DNA of 16,895 bases from an uncultured Candidatus Saccharibacteria bacterium. Lineage in GTDB: Bacteria > Patescibacteriota > Dojkabacteria > JAHIVN01. The notes beneath the pieces are model-generated. The model was not told where the DNA came from. It did not search any database and saw only the letters and a program-made list of their open reading frames with translations. Made by a program: the position numbers and the translations under genes. Positions 2,960 to 16,335 of the stretch are shown one piece after another. Position 1 is the stretch's first letter; every line of letters starts with the position of its first letter. The stretch covers positions 1-16,895 of the forward strand of contig CAZNER010000030.1 in NCBI GenBank assembly GCA_964572065.1, read 5' to 3'.

Positions 2960-4249
2960 CTACTTAATTCTAACAAATTTTCTTTTGCCAACTTTAACGA
3001 CATTCCCCTTCTCCAGTTTAATTTTTTGTTCGAAGTCTTTTACTTTTTTACCTTCTATCTCTATTCCTCCTTGTTTTATTAGCCGTTTTGCTTCAGCATT
3101 ACTTGCTATTATTCCTTTTTTAACAAGTTCTTTCACTAACTCAAGTGCTGTTAATTCCTTTTTACACTTGATTTCTTTCATTTCATCAGGAGTCTCTCCT
3201 TTTTGTACAGTTTTTTCAAAATGTTCTTGAGCTTTTCGAGATATTTCTTCATCATTGAGCATCTTAACAATTTCAAATGCGAGCTGTTTTTTTAACAGCA
3301 TTTGTTTTCCTGATTTAATGCCTTTTTTGACTGTATTTAAGTCAATGTTAGTTAGTAATTCAAAACTTTCTAAAAGTTTTTCATCTGTCCATGACATAAT
3401 TTTTCCATACATATCTTCAGGAGCATCGAGAGATGAGATTGCATTACCAGTTGTTTTTCCCATTTTTTCTCCCTTTGTGTCAGTTAGGAGTTTTAATGTT
3501 AGAACAAACTTGTTTTTATTAGTGAGTTCTCTTGAAAGAGTCCTTCCTGTCAACATATTAAAGGTTTGATCTGAGCCTCCGACTTCAAGATCAACCTGCA
3601 TTACAGTACTATCAAATCCCTGCATTAACGGATACATTGTTTCATGAAGTCTTATTGGTTTCTCCTCTTTTAGTCTTGTTCTGAACATATCGTGGGATAA
3701 TATATTTTGAAGTGTAATTTTTCCCATTATCTGCAGCCAATCTTCTAATGTTACTTTTGATAACCAATCATAATTATTTAGAATCGTAATAGGATTATCC
3801 TTCCAGTCGAAATTCAATATTTTTGATGCTGTTGATTTATAATCCTTAAAGTTGTTCCAAACTTGTTGTTTTGTGAGAGGTTCGCGTGTGTATTGTTTGT
3901 CCGGATCTCCTATCATAGCTGTAAATCCGCCAATAAGAAATATCACTTGGTGTCCAAGTTTTTGAAATTGTGCTAATTTTCTCATCCAGATGAAATGCCC
4001 AACATGAAGGAAGTTTGCTGTAGGATCAATTCCTGTATAAAGTTTAATCCTTTTTCCTGACAGAAGAAGTTTTTTTAGATCCTTTTGTTTAGGAAAAATA
4101 TCTTTAACTCCTCGGGTTAATGCTTCATCGATTTTGTCAGGATCTGTAACAACATCCATTTGAGGTTCTTTTATAGATACCTTGTCAATATATTTATTCC
4201 ATATTTTTATTTCATTTGCTTTTTTTGATTTATTATTTTTCTTTTTCAT
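2960..4249 (-). CDS. tyrS: tyrosine--tRNA ligase
   Basis: Class I signatures are present: HIGH-type motif (LHVGH), KMSKS-type motif (KMGKT), a GIDPTA..LHVGH context and a C-terminal S4-like domain (..AEAKRLIKQGGIEIEGKKV). The N-terminus has a Lys-rich extension of about 30 aa. ATG at 4159 (MDVVTDP..) is an alternative start. Confidence 0.95.
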   Translation of the reverse strand: MKKKNNKSKKANEIKIWNKYIDKVSIKEPQMDVVTDPDKIDEALTRGVKDIFPKQKDLKKLLLSGKRIKLYTGIDPTANFLHVGHFIWMRKLAQFQKLGHQVIFLIGGFTAMIGDPDKQYTREPLTKQQVWNNFKDYKSTASKILNFDWKDNPITILNNYDWLSKVTLEDWLQIMGKITLQNILSHDMFRTRLKEEKPIRLHETMYPLMQGFDSTVMQVDLEVGGSDQTFNMLTGRTLSRELTNKNKFVLTLKLLTDTKGEKMGKTTGNAISSLDAPEDMYGKIMSWTDEKLLESFELLTNIDLNTVKKGIKSGKQMLLKKQLAFEIVKMLNDEEISRKAQEHFEKTVQKGETPDEMKEIKCKKELTALELVKELVKKGIIASNAEAKRLIKQGGIEIEGKKVKDFEQKIKLEKGNVVKVGKRKFVRIK

Positions 4250-4380: not shown

Positions 4381-4615
4381 TAAATAATTAACCCTCATTT
4401 TTATACCAGTGTTTGATATAAAAACAAGGGTCAATTGAGATAATTCGTAATTCGCATTTTGGCGGTACCACCTTTGTTTATTATTATATTACTATAATAA
4501 CCTCATTTCCCATTAAGTTGGAAATTCTTATTTAAATATTTAAATGTATTTCATCTTTTTGTAAACTCTCAGTCTGTGTTTACTTTCTGTATATTTAAGG
4601 ATTACTTAAAACTAT
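4381..4615 (-). promoter_or_regulatory. T-box riboswitch leader (tyrosine specifier) of tyrS
   Basis: The minus strand reads AAACAAAGGUGGUACCGCCAAAA (plus-strand ggcggtaccacc at 4461-4472), matching the conserved T-box core GGUGGUACCGC. The variable base in UGGU predicts discriminator A, as in tRNA-Tyr. UAC followed by A (plus-strand gta at 4546-4548) sits on the 3' side of a stem-I-like structure whose upper hairpin is gtaaac..gagag..gtttac (4561-4583). A terminator follows and the leader lies directly upstream of an aaRS gene. Confidence 0.75.
4392..4430 (-). terminator. T-box leader intrinsic terminator
   Basis: The minus strand reads cccttgtttttata-tcaaacactgg-tataaaaatgaggg, 14 bp including 2 G-U pairs, followed by UUAAUUAUUU. 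Its 5' arm can instead pair with AAACAAAGG just upstream of the T-box (8 of 9 pairs), as expected for an antiterminator switch. Confidence 0.6.
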
Positions 4616-4620
4616 AATTA

Positions 4621-4682: not shown

Positions 4683-5780
4683 ATGAACAAGAAGTTAAAA
4701 GCTGTTTTCACAATGGTAGCCGGTACCATTGGAGTTGGTTTTTTAGCTCTGCCCTATTCTATCTATAAATTTGGCACCTTTTGGGGAATAGGCTGTTTGG
4801 TGTTAGTAAGTTTATTGACTTTAGTAGGTAATCTTGCCTATAGTTCAATTGTATTAAAAGATAAAGGAAATAAACAGCTCCCAGGGTATACTAATAAATA
4901 TCTTAATTATTCTCTGTCTCATATAGTAACTTTTATTGTAATAATTGGATCTTTTGGTATCCTTCTTGCTTACAGTATTTTAGCTGGAGAGTCATTAAGA
5001 TTTTTAGTTGGTAATTTTAATATAAATCTAAGTGCTAGTTTTTTAGGATTGCTGTTTGTCATGATTTCTATTTTTGTAATGAAGTACGGGATGAAAGTTA
5101 TTTCAAGGATTTCGACTCTGGCTATTGTGATTATTATTTCATCTATTATATTATTAGTTGCTATTTCAATTCCTGAGATAAGTTCAGATAATATATCTTC
5201 ACTAAATTGGAATTATTTTTCATTAATTTTTGGAGTTTCAATTTTTGCGATGTTTTCAGTTACAACTGTGCCGGTTATTGATGAGATAATTGGTTATAAT
5301 AAGAAAGATTACAATGTAGTAGTATCTGTTTCCACAATAATAACTGCTTTTATATATATAATTTTTGGTCTTGTTCTAACTTTAGCATTTGGAGATAATT
5401 TAACTAGTACTTTGATAGATTCATTTGGTGCTAAGTATATTTTCCTATCAAATATTCTTTCTGTTTTAACGTTATTTGCTATATTTACCTCATTTATTTT
5501 AATAGCAAATAATATTAAAGAGATTTTAAATTATGATTATAAGTTATCTCCTAAAGTATCGGTGTTGGTGATTACTACGATATTAATATGGCTGATGGTT
5601 TTTAGTTTCCTTGATTTTGAGACATTGCTTTCTTTAGTAGGTAATTTTTCAATGGTATTGCAGTATATTATAATTTTCTGCATTTGGTTTATAATTAAAA
5701 AGGAGGCTAGTTGGATATATAAAGTTATTGTTATCATATCTGCTATAGCTTTATCTTTTGGTATATTTATTCAAATTTAA
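4683..5780 (+). CDS. amino acid permease, Trp/Tyr-permease-like (Aa_trans/HAAAP-type), possible tyrosine transporter
   Basis: 365 aa and polytopic, with about 10-11 hydrophobic segments. The N-terminal motif VAGTIGVGFLALP resembles the VAGT.IG.G.LA.P motif of TyrP/Mtr/TnaB-type carriers. Divergent from tyrS. Substrate assignment is inference. Confidence 0.7.
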   Translation: MNKKLKAVFTMVAGTIGVGFLALPYSIYKFGTFWGIGCLVLVSLLTLVGNLAYSSIVLKDKGNKQLPGYTNKYLNYSLSHIVTFIVIIGSFGILLAYSILAGESLRFLVGNFNINLSASFLGLLFVMISIFVMKYGMKVISRISTLAIVIIISSIILLVAISIPEISSDNISSLNWNYFSLIFGVSIFAMFSVTTVPVIDEIIGYNKKDYNVVVSVSTIITAFIYIIFGLVLTLAFGDNLTSTLIDSFGAKYIFLSNILSVLTLFAIFTSFILIANNIKEILNYDYKLSPKVSVLVITTILIWLMVFSFLDFETLLSLVGNFSMVLQYIIIFCIWFIIKKEASWIYKVIVIISAIALSFGIFIQI

Positions 5781-5788
5781 GACAGATT

Positions 5789-6355
5789 ATGTATAAGAAG
5801 GCTTTAAAAGTTTTAAAAAGCGGTGGCATTATAACTTTCCCTTGTGATACTGTTATGGGAATTGGTTGCTCAATGAGTAATAGGAAAGCAATTAAAAGAT
5901 TGTATAATATAAAGAATAGGTCTTTTAGCCAGCCAACAGCTGTGTTAGTAGAAAACCAACAAATGGCAGGAACTTTAATAGGTGTTAAGATAGATAAATG
6001 TTTGAACAGCATTATGGAAAAATATTGGTCTGGTGCGCTTACTATTGTTGTTAAAGCTTCTGAAATTGTGCCTCAAGAGATTATGGGCCAAACAGATAAA
6101 GTCGGTATTAGAGTACCTAATTCCCCTCAATTACAGCAAATGATAGGCAAATTAGGATCACCATTGGTTGCGACATCAGCTAATTTCTTTGGAGAAGAGA
6201 CACCAATAAGGTATTCTCAAATAGATAAAGAATTTTTAAAGTTAGTTGATTATTCTATTAGAGAAGATAGTACAGGCATAAGTGCTTCTACTGTGATAAA
6301 GTATAAAGGAAATGGGAATTTGGAATATTTGAGGAAGGGATTGATAGAGGTTTAG
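5789..6355 (+). CDS. tsaC: L-threonylcarbamoyladenylate synthase, short TsaC/YrdC type (t6A tRNA modification)
   Basis: 188 aa with the YrdC-fold motifs: TFPCDTVMGIGC (compare YPTEAVFGVGC), K.R....P, W.GALT.VV and VGIRVP..P....I...G.PLVATSANF.G. Only 8 nt from the permease stop, so probably co-transcribed. Confidence 0.85.
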   Translation: MYKKALKVLKSGGIITFPCDTVMGIGCSMSNRKAIKRLYNIKNRSFSQPTAVLVENQQMAGTLIGVKIDKCLNSIMEKYWSGALTIVVKASEIVPQEIMGQTDKVGIRVPNSPQLQQMIGKLGSPLVATSANFFGEETPIRYSQIDKEFLKLVDYSIREDSTGISASTVIKYKGNGNLEYLRKGLIEV

Positions 6356-6520
6356 AGATAAAATGTTTGTTAGTAAAGATTAGAAAAAATTTTCTTCGCA
6401 TAATGGTTTTATTACATGTCTCGATTTACGAGTTTATGAAATTATACATTTTAATTAATGTAATGATTGTTATTAAATATATCCAGTTTATTATTAAATT
6501 ATATTTAAGTTTCTTCCTTT

Positions 6521-6624
6521 GTACTTTTGGCCGCAAAAGTACCAAAACTCGTGGGGTTGATTAAGTCCCACAGTAAACAATCTAATTGCCGTGAACATCC
6601 GGACGTAATCAACCCCACACCCCG
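6521..6624. repeat. family H composite structured element, copy 2
   Basis: Hairpin a is gtactttt / ggccgc / aaaagtac (6521-6542), 8 bp with a 6-nt loop. An 8-nt spacer follows. Hairpin b is gtggggttgatta (6551-6563) paired with taatcaaccccac (6606-6618), a 13-bp perfect stem closing a 42-nt loop, extendable by gtcc/ggac. The C-tract is then reiterated as a-cccc-g (6619-6624). Loop positions 9-19 read agtaaacaatc here and agtgaacaaac in copy 1, 9/11 identical in the same register. Confidence 0.6.
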
Positions 6625-6732
6625 ATGATATAACAATTATCAATCAGATTTTTTAACAAGAAAATATATAAAATATCCCGAACTATAATAATTTATTAGA
6701 CATTTTTTATAAACAAAAAGAGGAAGATAAAA

Positions 6733-6752
6733 AGGAATTAGAATGCGATTTC
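6733..6752 (+). terminator. hairpin, near-identical inverted copy of the tyrS terminator hairpin
   Basis: atgcgatt-tcct-gatcgcat is 8 bp including one U-G pair, followed by AAAAUAGUAUUU. The 29-nt string tagaatgcgatttcctgatcgcataaaat (6729-6757) matches the minus strand at 2962-2934 with 3 mismatches. Confidence 0.45.
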
Positions 6753-6779
6753 CTGATCGCATAAAATAGTATTTAAGTA

Positions 6780-6801
6780 ATGCGGTCTGAGACCGTATTT
6801 T
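6780..6801 (+). terminator. intrinsic terminator-like hairpin
   Basis: atgcggtc-tga-gaccgtat is 8 bp including one G-U pair, and is followed directly by UUU (A). Confidence 0.5.
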
Positions 6802-6818
6802 ACAGTGGTTTTATAAAG

Positions 6819-6847
6819 TTCACATCTTTCTCACTTTGTATTAAAAT
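6819..6847 (+). promoter_or_regulatory. sigma70-type promoter for the hydrolase gene
   Basis: TTCACA (6819-6824), a 17-nt spacer, TAAAAT (6842-6847), then 23 nt to ATG 6871. Confidence 0.45.
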
Positions 6848-6870
6848 GTGATTTTATATTAGTATTAGAT

Positions 6871-7695
6871 ATGAAAAAAGTAATTTTAGATAAAGCTAAA
6901 ATAGGTTATATTCATAAAGGTAAAAAGGGAAAACCTAAAATTTTGATGCTTCATGGTCTTTTTTCAAATTGCAGGTATTTTGATGAGACAATTAGTTTTA
7001 TTAAGAATGATTTTGAGATTATAGCCCCTGATTTTCCAGGTTTTGGCTTGTCTGATAAGTTGAAAACTGTATCTCATACTCTAGAATCCTATTCAGAATC
7101 AATAATACAATTATGTGATCACCTAGATTTTAAACCTTTTAATTTAATTGGAGCTTCACTTGGAGGTATGGTTGGGATAAAACTTGCTAGTGATTATGAT
7201 GAATATATTAGTAAAGTAATAATTCAAGCTGCCCCTTGGAATAAATCATGTATAAATATGAGAATTATTGAAAAAACTTTTGATTTTGCATCAAGAATGG
7301 AAAAATTGGTTAATGTAGTAGATGGTTTAAAAAATAGAATAAAAAAAGAAACTCTTACAAAAACCTTGAAGATGTTTAATAAGCATTATTATTCAATTGA
7401 AGAAAGAAACGGCTGTATATCATATAGTTTTAAAAGAATGAATCTCAAAGCTACATCACAGATTTGGAATAATTTAAAAGATGCCGAACTTTCTGAAAAA
7501 GCTAAAAGGATAGAAAAGAAGACTTTAGTTATTGCAGGAGATCATGATGAAATTGTGTTTCCTGAAAAGACGAAGATGTTAGCTGAATTTATAAAAGATT
7601 CAGAGTTCAGATTAATCAAAGGAATTGATTGTACACATGCATTATTTTTTGATCATCCAGACAAAATGGCTAGGCTGATTAAAAGTTTCTTTTAG
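6871..7695 (+). CDS. alpha/beta-fold hydrolase
   Basis: 274 aa with an HG oxyanion motif (MLHGLFSN), the nucleophile elbow GASLGG (G.S.G), an acid in AGDHDEIV and a His in CTHALFFDHP. This is a complete Ser-Asp-His triad pattern. Substrate unknown. Confidence 0.85.
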   Translation: MKKVILDKAKIGYIHKGKKGKPKILMLHGLFSNCRYFDETISFIKNDFEIIAPDFPGFGLSDKLKTVSHTLESYSESIIQLCDHLDFKPFNLIGASLGGMVGIKLASDYDEYISKVIIQAAPWNKSCINMRIIEKTFDFASRMEKLVNVVDGLKNRIKKETLTKTLKMFNKHYYSIEERNGCISYSFKRMNLKATSQIWNNLKDAELSEKAKRIEKKTLVIAGDHDEIVFPEKTKMLAEFIKDSEFRLIKGIDCTHALFFDHPDKMARLIKSFF

Positions 7696-8162
7696 TAATC
7701 AATTTTGTCTGATTTGTTTTTCCAAATTTTGAAAAGTTCTAGACATTCCTTATGGCAGAAATCTGGAATTGTTTTAAGTTTACGTTCCTCTTGGGCTTTT
7801 TTAAATTCATCATAGATGAATTGGTCATCAAAATCTATTTCAGCTGCTTCATATCTTGTACAACCATAGTATAATTTATCAATTCTAGCCCAATAAATTG
7901 CTGCAAGGCACATAGGACATGGTTCACAGGTAGAATAAATTTCGCAGCCGTCTAATTTAAAAGAATTGAGCTTTTTACAAGCCTTTCTTATAGCATTTAT
8001 CTCAGCATGAGCCGTAGGATCATTATCTTTTACTACAGTATTATTACCAAATGAAATTAATTTATCATTTTTAACAATGCAGGCTCCAAATGGTCCCTCT
8101 CCTACATTCTGTAGTCCTTTTTTGGCTTTCTTTATAGCTTGAAACATATATTTTTTATCCAT
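7692..8162 (-). CDS. guaD: guanine deaminase (CDA-fold, GuaD type)
   Basis: 156 aa with the zinc motifs HAE and PCPMC. The GPFGA.IVK, NDPTAHAE..AIRKACK, Y.(S/T)CEPCPMC..AIYWAR and FDD.FIY.E blocks match my recollection of Bacillus subtilis GuaD, which is also 156 aa. A TadA-like tRNA deaminase is less likely because of the FDD.FIY tail. Confidence 0.8.
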   Translation of the reverse strand: MDKKYMFQAIKKAKKGLQNVGEGPFGACIVKNDKLISFGNNTVVKDNDPTAHAEINAIRKACKKLNSFKLDGCEIYSTCEPCPMCLAAIYWARIDKLYYGCTRYEAAEIDFDDQFIYDEFKKAQEERKLKTIPDFCHKECLELFKIWKNKSDKIDY

Positions 8163-10863: not shown

Positions 10864-13800
10864 TTATTTACTCTTTTTGTTTTTAAAGTACAAAAATATA
10901 CTAACTATTAAGATGAATACAAATGGCAAAATACACCAGAGAACATTAAATTGTTCTAAAAATGAACCGTATTTTATTACTGGAAAGTTTATATTATTAA
11001 TATTTTCATTTTCTTCAACTGTAATGAATATATAATTCCCCCATTCAAGTTCAGCATTATCCGGAAGATCTTCGAGATTAATTGTAAGTGAATATTCTCC
11101 TTGACACAATTCAGTTTCCCAGTATCCTTCATTATTTGTTTTTGCAGATGCTATTCTATCTCCGTTTTCACTTTCGTCAAAATAGACTTCAATTTGAATG
11201 TTATTTAAGCCTTTTTCGTCTTCATCCTTGTTATTATTCTTATTATCATCTATAAATACATATCCGGAAATTTTCGATTTCTTGCCGCAATCTACAATAC
11301 TTAGGACATTCTCTGATTCGTCTGTGTCATTATCATTAGATTCATCTGTCTCATCTTGATCATCTGCAGTATCAATAATATGTGGATAAAAAGTCAGTGT
11401 CATAGTTTCTGTAACTTTGTCTCCATCGACATCTGTGACTTTGATAGTGCAGGTATAAATTCCAGGTCTGGCTTTAATTGTTGTTTGAGGGTTACTGCCT
11501 TGGCAGATACCGCTCCATTCGTATGTATAAGGCTCATTTCCTCCTTCAACACTAGCTGTTAATGTAATAGGCACCCATGCATATACTTTATTAGATGGAT
11601 ATGCTGATATACTTACTGTTGGTTGTTTGTCTTCTACTTTTACTTTAAATATAGCAATACCGCTTTCATTGCTTCCATCTTCACTTTCAGCAACTTTAAT
11701 TGTTACTGTATAAATTCCATTGTAAATGTAAGTATGTGATGGTATTGAAAATTCGCCGGGTTCATTCATTACTGCAATAGTTTTGATACTAGTTCCATCT
11801 CCATAATCTATAGTAACAGTCCATGGTGCATCATCTGGATCATTTCCTGAACCTTCGATATAACTTGGATCAGTAAACGAAGCTGTAAGTTTATTTGTAC
11901 TCTGCCCTTCTATAATTTCTTGATCGGTTGGTGGTATAACATTCGGCTTGACATTATTTACAGTAAAAGTGGTTATGTAATTTTGGTCTCCAGTAGTGTC
12001 AGGATCGCTGTCACTTTGATTTGCAGGAGTAGATGAGTCCAGCAAATAGTATTCTAATTGGTAAACTCCATTCTGCAGCATTTGCGGGTATAGAGTAGTT
12101 AATTCTAAAGTCCAAGTGTACTCTACTCCATTTCCTGAAAGACATGTAAATACTCCGCCGTCTATTTCTACAATTTGGTAGCAAAGCTGATCTAAAGAAA
12201 TATCATCCTTACCGGTTATATCAACTTCTATATTATCTCCTTCATTATAGTTGGAATCCTCGAGTTCAGGTTCAATAAATGGTTTTGTATTATCAACTGT
12301 TATATTTATTGTTGTAGTATCTTCATGCCCTGCTAAATCAAGGGCATATAATTCGATTGTGTAAACGCCGTCGCCGAAATTTGGATCCTGCGAAATATAA
12401 GTTAATGTATTGAATTCATGTGTAAAAGATTGTGAAATTCCGTTAAATGTTTCAACTATATTACCCGGGTCACCATTAGGATAAATTGTAAGAGTATATT
12501 CATCAAAGTTGTCATCTATTATATTCCCATTTATAGAAATTGTTCCTCCAACAGTATCACCATCATGAGGATTAGTTATATTTGCATCTGGATCAATATT
12601 ATCAATAATGACTGTTATAATATCATCATTTTGATTTCCGGCTTCATCCTGTGCTGTAAGAGTTATAGTATGAAGTCCGTTTATGCCTGTTGTATCCCAG
12701 CTCATGATAGGTTGATTATTAAATGAATTTGGTTCTAGTATTAGACCAGTTCCTTCAACATAGTTTCCAATTCCGTCTTCTATAATTAATTCATAAGAAT
12801 AAGGGTTGTCATCTTCAACTGTACCTCGAATAGTGAAAATATCTGAAAGATAAAATTGTATTGGATAAGTAATCTCGACTGTAGGATGAGTATTGTCAAT
12901 GATTATATTTATTGAATCTTCTGCTGAATTTGTTGCTCTATCAACAGCTTCAAGATTTAAGACATATTCGCCATCTGGAAGAATTGTTGTATTGAAATCA
13001 GCAGAAACATTTGTATTTCCGCCGCTGGCAATAAATGTTATGTCTGATGGGTCACTTACTGGATGAATTGATAGTTCATAATTATCTAAATGCAGTTCAG
13101 TTATTGTTCCGGTTATATTTATAGTACCATTAACTACTTCATTATTGTTTGGCTGGGTAATTACCGGGACTGGATCAGTTATATCATAAGTAATATTTGT
13201 TGCATGCCCATCTGATTCAATATGTCCAAGAATATCAGTTGCAATTGCTCTTATATCATAGCTACCTTCATGTGGCGGATTTGATGCCGGCATTAAATCC
13301 GGATTCCAATTATATGTCCAGTCGAATGGATTATTTATTCCATCGCTATCTGTAAGTGTTTCTATTAATGTCCATGGATCAATGGTTCCTGTATTTCTAT
13401 AATAAATATCAACGTAAAGAAGTGTTGAATAATCCTCAGTTGTACCTTGTATTGGTATATCAGTATTCCAGTAAGTGTCATCCGCAGGTGATGTCAAAGT
13501 TGTTACTGGAGGATTTGTATCTAGAACAATTACATAGGTGTTACTTACTCCATTACTCCAATAAGATTCATTTCCTTCACTGTCTCTTGCTCTTACTCTT
13601 ATATAATACATTCCATCAGGTATTCCTAATGTAGAGATTTCTGAATTTGTTATCCATCCGCTTGAATCCCATACTAAATTTGAATAAGCAGTATCACCAT
13701 AAGCTTCAAACTGATATTCAAATGAAGGGAAGGTGCCGTCAGAATCTGTCCAATCTACCTCTGATGCACTTGTAGGGTAAAATGCTGTATTTGGCGGAGC

Positions 13801-16113: not shown

Positions 16114-16142
16114 ATTATATATTAGTATAGGATAAATATCAA
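16114..16142 (-). promoter_or_regulatory. sigma70-type promoter of the giant surface protein gene
   Basis: On the minus strand: TTGATA (16137-16142), a 17-nt spacer, TATAAT (16114-16119), then a 39-nt leader to ATG 16074. Confidence 0.6.
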
Positions 16143-16191
16143 TAAGAGATATGCACTTTAAATATATATTGATGGTATAGATTTGCATTAA

Positions 16192-16306
16192 GGCTCCATT
16201 ACGGATAATGGAGCCAACGACTACCTGCTATGATACGCATAGCGTTGCCTGCTAGCAACGATAACATAGCTTTTCGGGCTAGCAGGCGAGCAGATAATTG
16301 AGCCAG
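16192..16306. repeat. family E GC-rich structured element, copy 2
   Basis: About 50% GC (hand count 58/115). Hairpin ggctccatt-acggat-aatggagcc (16192-16215, 9 bp) is followed by an extra hairpin gctatg-atacg-catagc (16227-16243). The GC hairpin gcctgctagc / gctagcaggc (16247-16287) is 10 bp with a 21-nt loop. Then comes gagcag. The direct repeat ataatggagcca (16205-16216) / ataattgagcca (16294-16305) is 11/12 identical. Block order is the same as at 2838-2921. Confidence 0.6.
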
Positions 16307-16335
16307 CAAGTTTATCAGTTATTATTATTTTTATT

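Follow-up and report, generated by a model that had tools for sequence, protein, structure and literature searches.

The 515-nt gap between the yrdC gene and an alpha/beta hydrolase gene on a Dojkabacteria chromosome holds a 110-base non-coding element that folds into two hairpins (copy 2). This element, another copy in the same genome (copy 1) and a third member in a second Dojkabacteria genome form one family and are not look-alikes. REP/REPIN palindromic repeats, which a domesticated transposase maintains in other bacteria, are the known kind of element that ours most resembles, as an unusual variant in an unusual host. Our preferred reading, held tentatively and at somewhat less than an even chance, is that of a low-copy REP/REPIN/BIME-like composite palindrome.

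[quoted passage not shown] The closest TyrRS in a species-representative collection was 70% identical and came from a Dojkabacteria MAG. An identical YrdC protein is encoded on contigs of several metagenomes, and the intergenic region checked was 100% identical in three of them. The functions of the genes near the element are ordinary: tyrS (2960–4249, minus strand) is followed by genes for an amino-acid transporter (4683–5780), a Sua5/YrdC protein (5789–6355) and the alpha/beta hydrolase (6871–7695), while a tRNA-adenosine-deaminase-like gene, a CHASE2 cyclase and a 1774-aa surface protein are found farther away. Copy 2 sits in the gap from 6356 to 6870, for which the predicted length of 515 nt was confirmed, and both copies lie between plus-strand genes.

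In copy 2, hairpin 1 (6521–6542; GTACTTTTG-GCCG-CAAAAGTAC) has 9 bp, a GCCG loop and the palindrome head GTAC. It is connected by an 8-nt linker, CAAAACTC (6543–6550), to hairpin 2, whose 5′ arm in plus numbering (6551–6563; GTGGGGTTGATTA, with the conserved foot GTGGGG and the variable upper part TTGATTA) pairs perfectly over 13 bp with the 3′ arm TAATCAACCCCAC (6606–6618) around a 42-nt spacer (6564–6605). The tail ACCCCGAT (6619–6626) is a partial tandem copy of the foot, and its CGATG segment is also present in the third member. Since the linker is A-rich on the plus strand, the minus strand has the U-run GAGUUUUG immediately 3′ of hairpin 2; C6550 and A6619 form a G.U pair on that strand only. 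The loop contains GTAAACA (6573–6579), which reads UGUUUAC on the minus strand and occupies loop positions 27–33. The original prediction had described hairpin 1, the 13-bp stem, the 42-nt loop and the A-CCCC tail correctly in every sequence detail, and an inverted-repeat search recovered its extension of the stem by GTCC/GGAC (6565–6568 with 6601–6604) after a 1×1 mismatch, giving 17 of 18 pairs. The alternative fold that it suggested, in which CCCAC at 6567–6571 pairs with the 5′ GTGGG, could indeed form but was an incomplete description, being one case of a wider feature, as a partial tandem copy of the foot adjoins the stem in all three members. The word taattgc..gtgaaca, given as a match between the loops of copies 1 and 2, does occur in similar form, but it is about 19 nt out of register between them.

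Copy 1 (1978–2093) follows the same plan with a different stem. Its hairpin 1 (1978–2007) is made of the 14-nt arms AGGGTATTTTTTGA and TCAAAAAATACCCT with 2 nt between them and is followed by a 9-nt, A-rich linker. In hairpin 2 (2017–2086), TTAGGGAAATGTTA pairs with TAACATTTCCCTAA over 14 perfect base pairs around 42 nt, with GTGAACA in the loop (2040–2046; UGUUCAC on the minus strand), and the C-rich tail AACCCTAA (2087–2094) is a second copy of CCCTAAAA. Contigs of three independent Logan assemblies (SRR6963311, SRR14699969 and SRR6963479) end at 2093, within the CCCTAAAA-CCCTAAAA tandem repeat, and another contig begins at 2075, at the end of copy 1; the JGI and ENA assemblies read through. 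These contig breaks at 2075–2093 suggest population heterogeneity at the edge of copy 1. The third member was found at 7715–7827 of locus L173, a contig from another Dojkabacteria genome that was obtained through its YrdC homologue (58% identical). Its flanking genes, one for MazG and one of 302 aa, give it a surrounding that is unrelated to that of either copy in the window.

Several features are common to the three members. The hairpin 1 arms of the L173 member (TACTTTTTT and AAAAAAGTA) are conserved relative to those of copy 2, and the pattern GTAyTTTT...AAAArTAC is kept. Hairpin 2 has arms of 13–14 nt and spacers of 42, 42 and 43 nt; its foot is GTGGGG...CCCCAC in copy 2 and the L173 member and TAGGGA...TCCCTA in copy 1. 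Above the foot, some seven pairs bear no relation in sequence from one copy to the next, yet they are perfectly complementary. On the minus strand, every member has a U-run after hairpin 2 (UCUUUUUUUA in copy 1 and CUUUUUUGUC in L173), and the motif UGUUNAY on the minus strand (GTRAACA on the plus strand) matches in register at loop positions 27–33, counted on the minus strand, in all three, as UGUUUAC, UGUUCAC and UGUUAUC. The tandem copies of the foot outside the stem read CCCCAC-ACCCC in copy 2, CCCCCAC-ACCCAC in L173 and the CCCTAAAA doublet in copy 1. RNAalifold, run for both strands of the three members, found no conserved structure inside the 42-nt spacer. Although their genomes encode housekeeping proteins of only about 58–60% identity, copy 2 and the L173 member share sequence in the leader, in the foot, in hairpin 1 and in parts of the loop.

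The assignment of these sequences to one family was supported in several ways. Perfect stems of at least 13 bp around a 30–80-nt loop were expected 0.053 times on average in first-order Markov simulations of the window; two were observed, a number that is reached or passed with a probability of about 0.003. When copy 2 was the only input, the resulting covariance model (R1) retrieved the L173 member (27.8 bits, E = 4e-5) and, on the minus strand with filters off, copy 1 (19.6 bits), which upheld the predicted kinship of copies 1 and 2. A further model (R2), built from the ungapped pair of hairpin 2 sequences of copies 1 and 2, found the L173 member at 23 bits. Both models were made without a three-member alignment because MAFFT misaligned the three members. 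Across the 14 pairs of hairpin 2 in the three members, 39 of 39 cells were standard pairs and eight pairs showed double compensatory changes, a result reached by none of 500 shuffles, with 39–53% pairing in slid controls; this covariation test concerns three sequences only, in an alignment fitted to the structure. Plain alignment of the intergenic regions of copies 1 and 2 gave nothing above shuffle level, and the L173 region beyond the element showed no sequence similarity to them above that level. The Markov simulations, the covariation test and the matches of the models across genomes exclude a chance resemblance.

Copy 2 folded far more stably than its shuffles on both strands (z-scores of −6.4 for the plus and −4.4 for the minus strand, 0 of 200 shuffles being as stable), and the plus-strand fold of copy 1 had a z-score of −7.8. 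This stability and the lack of any ORF shared among the three copies agree with the earlier view of copy 2 as a real structured, non-coding element. The 65-aa ORF said to overlap it is a TTG-start frame (6367–6564) that ends within the stem of hairpin 2, and it was rightly regarded as spurious, having a low-complexity translation and no Pfam match. Copy 2 and the L173 member are overlapped by different ORFs, and copy 1 has no ORF across it; a protein-coding identity was rejected, there being no conserved reading frame and no family match.

Known RNAs and mobile elements were likewise considered. Rfam yielded no gathering-level match in the window and, around the two copies, only noise at E values up to 10 (6356–6870 and 1880–2280), and an ARAGORN scan for tRNA and tmRNA found nothing, in line with the predicted absence of SRP, RNase P, tmRNA and tRNA motifs. 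SRP RNA, which the GGGG...CCCC ends and UCCGGA had brought to mind, was dismissed with no SRP model match, two dissimilar copies and no GGAA tetraloop region. For copy 1, the presence of GGUGGAAC in the loop raised the possibility of a T-box, which was rejected because the copy lies downstream of tyrS and has no gene to regulate. No direct target-site duplication flanks the arms, as would befit a MITE, the only repeat being the one-sided tandem copy of the foot, and the copies are dissimilar. An integron attC site was discarded with neither integrase nor cassettes present, and an inverton with a spacer too short for inversion. A small toxin-like ORF upstream (40 aa, 6640–6762, minus strand) is not conserved at the other copies.

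Searches for further members indicate a family of few copies and narrow distribution. In about 52 kb of this genome (some 5% of it) there are two copies, which have almost no primary sequence in common; R1 and R2 found no other in the loci L166, L168 and L262, which add about 35 kb of that genome. None was found in about 170 kb of other Dojkabacteria-like loci (L006, L086, L171, L172, L174–L177 and L265) by R1 with filters off or by R2, in 1.44 Mb of other CPR and Chloroflexi loci by R2, in 2.2 Mb of CPR and Chloroflexi loci by stem-descriptor and loop-motif scans, in 0.77 Mb of IMG/VR loci by a pattern scan followed by R1, or in plasmid and phage collections by BLAST. Outside the window, the L173 member is thus the single one in about 300 kb of Dojkabacteria-like sequence.

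The three members occupy unrelated, non-syntenic intergenic sites in two genomes. An empty site is seen in locus L265, which is syntenic with L173 (the shared genes being exonuclease VII, a Y1 transposase, a 300-aa gene with 79% identity to its L173 counterpart, and MazG): the 470 nt of L173 that include the element correspond to 65 nt in L265. The gap downstream of yrdC lacks the element in L006, L171 and L173, and the content of the yrdC–hydrolase gap that holds copy 2 differs in every relative examined. This interval (window 6356–6870; L006 6156–6333; L171 1378–3067; L172 6872–11720; L173 763–3757) is a hotspot of changing gene content in related Dojkabacteria, ranging from 179 nt without extra genes to at least two extra genes. 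In L173 it includes a strong minus-strand terminator-like hairpin, AATACTCC-TTTT-GGAGTATT (3462–3485), with a long T-run on the minus strand; the hairpin stands between plus-strand genes, upstream of the hydrolase gene, with no minus-strand ORF to terminate, a situation resembling that of copy 2.

Other structured regions were noted in this genome. A weak full-length match to the Rfam T-box leader lies on the minus strand upstream of tyrS (4424–4617; 19.6 bits, E = 0.027, gathering score 93), and a strong terminator-like hairpin with a T-rich tail (4388–4434) comes after it, about 140 nt before the tyrS start. A similar hairpin, ACCCTTG...CAAGGGT, is found upstream of tyrS in L172 (4305–4346). 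A divergent T-box riboswitch, here in a member of the CPR, is a possible identity for the minus-strand region 4388–4617. The hydrolase and deaminase genes converge with overlapping 3′ ends, across which extends a stem of 11 out of 12 bp around 30 nt (7658–7711); as ATTTGTTTTT follows it on the plus strand, it is likely to be a terminator built into two coding ends. A 147-nt region of about 40% G+C (16189–16335), between a 125-aa gene and the start of the gene for the 1774-aa surface protein, holds two strong hairpins, GGCTCCATTA-CGGA-TAATGGAGCC (16192–16215) and GCCTGCTAGC...GCTAGCAGGC. This region has no Rfam match and is not a member of the family of copies 1 and 2; a model match at 16127–16217 was rejected as a member, the hairpin being a different one. 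About 15 kb past the right end of the window, a 600-nt intergenic region with a G+C content above that of its surroundings (L166 4754–5354) contains several hairpins, including an 11-bp stem around 50 nt (5188–5259), with no tRNA and no Rfam match (best E = 4.7).

Related loci drew our attention to REP-associated tyrosine transposases (RAYTs). They encode Y1 (HUH) transposases that match the NCBIfam model for this family, NF047646, at 94.8 bits in L172 (cut-off 80) and at 45–58 bits, in two stretches, in L006, L173 and L265. In L006 and L172 the RAYT gene adjoins tyrS, where the window has copy 1 and an unrelated 161-aa ORF, and in L173 the element is about 1.1 kb from the RAYT gene. Perfect 28-nt palindromes are present at these loci, too; their arms are 14 nt long, and they have GTAG at the head, a foot of GTAGGG(A) or GTAGGA and a variable top. 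Two are intergenic in L265 (GTAGGGATTTGATT with AATCAAATCCCTAC at 1753–1780 and GTAGGGAACGCAGA with TCTGCGTTCCCTAC at 3356–3383); the others lie in frame inside transposase genes, one being identical in L265 (5449–5476) and L173 (9306–9333; GTAGGAACATGATT with AATCATGTTCCTAC) and another being found in L006 (11571–11598; GTAGGGATGGAATA with TATTCCATCCCTAC). A further GTAG-headed palindrome follows the RAYT gene of L265. The in-gene palindromes of L173, L265 and L006 are situated in the insertion that splits the NCBIfam match into two stretches, and those of L173 and L265 are identical though the genomes differ; such GTAG...CTAC palindromes could serve self-recognition or autoregulation via the enzyme's own substrate. 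L172 has repeat families of its own around and away from its RAYT gene (1990–2160, 2690–2800 and 13607–13711), comprising hairpins of variable stem with the head GCTGGAGC, and GTAGAGACG...CGTCTCTAC palindromes that have GGATTGGGGATATGTTT after them.

The shared arm length, the constant foot with a variable complementary top and the GTGG or TTAG head place hairpin 2 close to these 28-nt palindromes. The feet GTGGGG and TAGGGA of the element compare with GTAGGG(A) and GTAGGA, the copy 2 arm GTGGGGTTGATTA resembles the arm GTAGGGATTTGATT of the palindrome at L265 1753, and with the loop deleted the palindromes were the next best R2 matches after the true members (18.9 and 14.8 bits). They differ in having no spacer, companion hairpin 1, U-run or tail repeat, and in that three of them are inside RAYT reading frames. 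The resemblance of the foot to RAYT-linked palindromes rests on 5–7 bases. Given the GT(A/G)G-headed palindromes of REP/REPIN type that are linked to RAYT genes in relatives, a new RNA gene is no more likely than a repeat acting at the DNA level.

REP and REPIN sequences typically occur in many similar copies per genome, and the cognate RAYT gene is usually flanked by the repeats. Read in these terms, the element consists of two adjacent hairpin-forming units, the short palindrome of hairpin 1 and hairpin 2 with its 14-nt arms, the latter unit having a conserved GT(A/G)G-type foot, a variable complementary upper stem and a 42–43-nt spacer. The foot of the single-stranded hairpin would be the recognition site of a RAYT, an HUH/Y1 enzyme, which would have copied or maintained such units at unrelated intergenic sites. 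Such copying would preserve the foot, the capacity of the arms to pair and a few bases in the loop but nothing more. Were the minus strand transcribed, hairpin 2 and the U-run might have the secondary effect of stopping transcription or protecting an RNA 3′ end, as has been described for REPs.

Published definitions of these repeats speak for this reading, with differences from the classical systems. A REP comprises a 5′-GT(A/G)G head and a palindrome (PMC2817692), and a REPIN two inverted units with a spacer of set lengths and poor conservation, which form a hairpin and are mobilised by a RAYT (PMC3337134); GTAG repeats are often paired 20–100 bp apart, are found downstream of genes and contain G-T pairs (PMC3733652). 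Our family likewise has a hairpin-forming inverted doublet with a spacer (13–14-bp arms and 42–43 nt in three members) and is extragenic, dispersed and present or absent between relatives. Copy 2 and the L173 member start with GTGG and copy 1 with TTAG, the head being base-paired in all of them. With the REPINs of Pseudomonas fluorescens SBW25 (PMC3337134 and PMC3116915) it shares conserved ends, a poorly conserved spacer, extragenic and dispersed placement, RAYT genes in the lineage and, in copy 2 and the L173 member, a GT(A/G)G-type head. Unlike them it has non-palindromic 14-nt arms, an upper stem that is wholly different between copies, a spacer without a conserved hairpin and a very low copy number, with no RAYT found in 52 kb of genome, and its host is a member of the CPR/Patescibacteria with about 30% G+C and not a proteobacterium. 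Like the GTAG-tagged REPs and BIMEs (PMC3733652 and PMC2817692), it has palindromic units, whose end in copy 2 and the L173 member is of the GTAG or GTGG kind; those repeats, too, often form pairs 20–100 bp apart or mosaics of two different units, stand between unidirectional or convergent genes, contain G-T pairs that suggest an RNA role, lie inside genes in some copies and flank RAYT genes. In the classical REPs of these reports, however, the GTAG tag is unpaired, the stems are GC-rich and of 6–13 bp, the loops have 2–4 nt, each unit is palindromic and families number tens to hundreds of near-identical copies, whereas in our element the tag is paired, the stem is AT-rich above the foot, an arm by itself is no palindrome and the copies have little sequence in common.

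We do not regard REP/REPIN membership as proven, because about 52 kb of this genome (window, L166 and L262) contain no RAYT gene, no zero-loop GTAG palindrome and no large set of similar copies, the few copies being dissimilar, and because the head is paired, the arms are not palindromic and the head of copy 1 is TTAG. An RNA function would account at least as well for the conserved loop motif, the constant length of the spacer, the U-run and the conservation of hairpin 1. The original prediction had implied an RNA from the plus strand; such strand clues as exist point to the minus strand, and its interpretation of the element is partly supported. Three clues agree in weakly favouring the minus strand: the U-run, the sole non-Watson–Crick positions, where the minus strand has G.U and the plus strand C.A, and the fold, which is more stable on the minus strand in all three members and clearly so in L173 (−43.8 versus −34.0 kcal/mol). 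Promoter-like boxes are present on both strands, and their prediction did not settle the matter. On the minus strand, TATAAT-like boxes occur 10–30 nt upstream of the stem; on the plus strand, a sigma-70-like site (TTGTTA-16-TATTAT, 6467–6494) stands just upstream of copy 2 and a terminator-like hairpin lies at about 6779–6800. Read on the minus strand, the element runs antisense to the genes beside it in the window, whereas in L173 it has the same direction as its neighbours, and this inconsistency argues against a cis-regulatory leader or a simple gene terminator.

The main alternative, which we consider rather unlikely, is a stand-alone minus-strand small RNA gene of about 90–120 nt, perhaps derived from a REP-like hairpin. 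Such an RNA would have a short G-rich 5′ leader, a 14-bp closing stem and a 42-nt apical domain with UGUUNAY, would end at the U-run backed by the second hairpin, would be present as a few diverged paralogues and would act by base pairing or protein binding through the loop motif. It would explain the fixed-register motif, the U-run directly 3′ of a GC-rich foot in every member and the conservation between copy 2 and L173, despite only 58–60% identity of housekeeping proteins, better than the REP reading does, and the G.U positions, the stability of the minus-strand folds and the TATAAT-like boxes are consistent with it. These boxes, however, are accompanied by no convincing −35 box and by no promoter at a conserved position, the 42-nt domain has no conserved inner structure, the element is absent from syntenic sites in relatives, and the G.U positions are at helix ends and shared by descent. 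A shade less probable again is the more specific proposal of an undescribed small RNA class restricted to one lineage of Dojkabacteria. Its members, transcribed from the minus strand and about 100 nt long, would have a REP-derived hairpin as their core, together with the conserved UGUUNAY loop motif and a G-rich repeated leader, and would persist as a few old paralogues with their own function, for instance as a protein sponge or an antisense regulator in a reduced CPR genome.

Two other explanations fit less well than either the REP reading or a minus-strand small RNA. A structured plus-strand RNA, acting as a 3′-UTR element of the upstream gene or as a leader of the downstream gene, seems improbable to us: the position of both window copies between plus-strand genes, the plus-strand z-scores, the sigma-70-like site and the terminator-like hairpin downstream all speak for it, but no U-run follows either hairpin on that strand, the non-canonical positions become C.A mismatches and the L173 copy is about 10 kcal/mol less stable. 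As both genes flanking the L173 copy are on the opposite strand, such an RNA would have no consistent cis role. It is just as doubtful that the elements are mere transcription terminators or insulators, or unrelated hairpins alike by chance. Like intrinsic terminators they have a GC-rich stem foot, a direct U-run on the minus strand and a second hairpin behind, hairpin 1 of copy 1 being among the predicted terminators; they are intergenic, and GC-footed hairpins stand out in an AT-rich genome. They differ from intrinsic terminators in the 42-nt loop with its conserved motif and in the conserved sequences of the tail and hairpin 1, and neither these features nor the 42/42/43-nt spacer with its in-register motif are needed for termination. 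Moreover, the window offers no upstream minus-strand gene to terminate, a co-directional gene preceding only the L173 copy among the three, and chance is countered by the simulation, covariation and cross-genome results given above.

For annotators, the practical consequence is that the 65-aa ORF is not a gene. Should the REP/REPIN reading be true, RAYTs and their palindromic partners would be present also in the tiny, streamlined genomes of the CPR; in the literature searched, we found no paper that links RAYTs or REPINs to Patescibacteria. The unusual form of these sequences, with a constant foot, a free upper stem, a 42-nt spacer and a palindrome in the RAYT reading frame, would then offer a compact system in which to study what a RAYT recognises. 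If the element is instead an RNA gene, it would be among the very few candidate regulatory RNAs for this phylum. Either reading would account for a 515-nt gap that seemed an orphan in a genome with little DNA to spare elsewhere.
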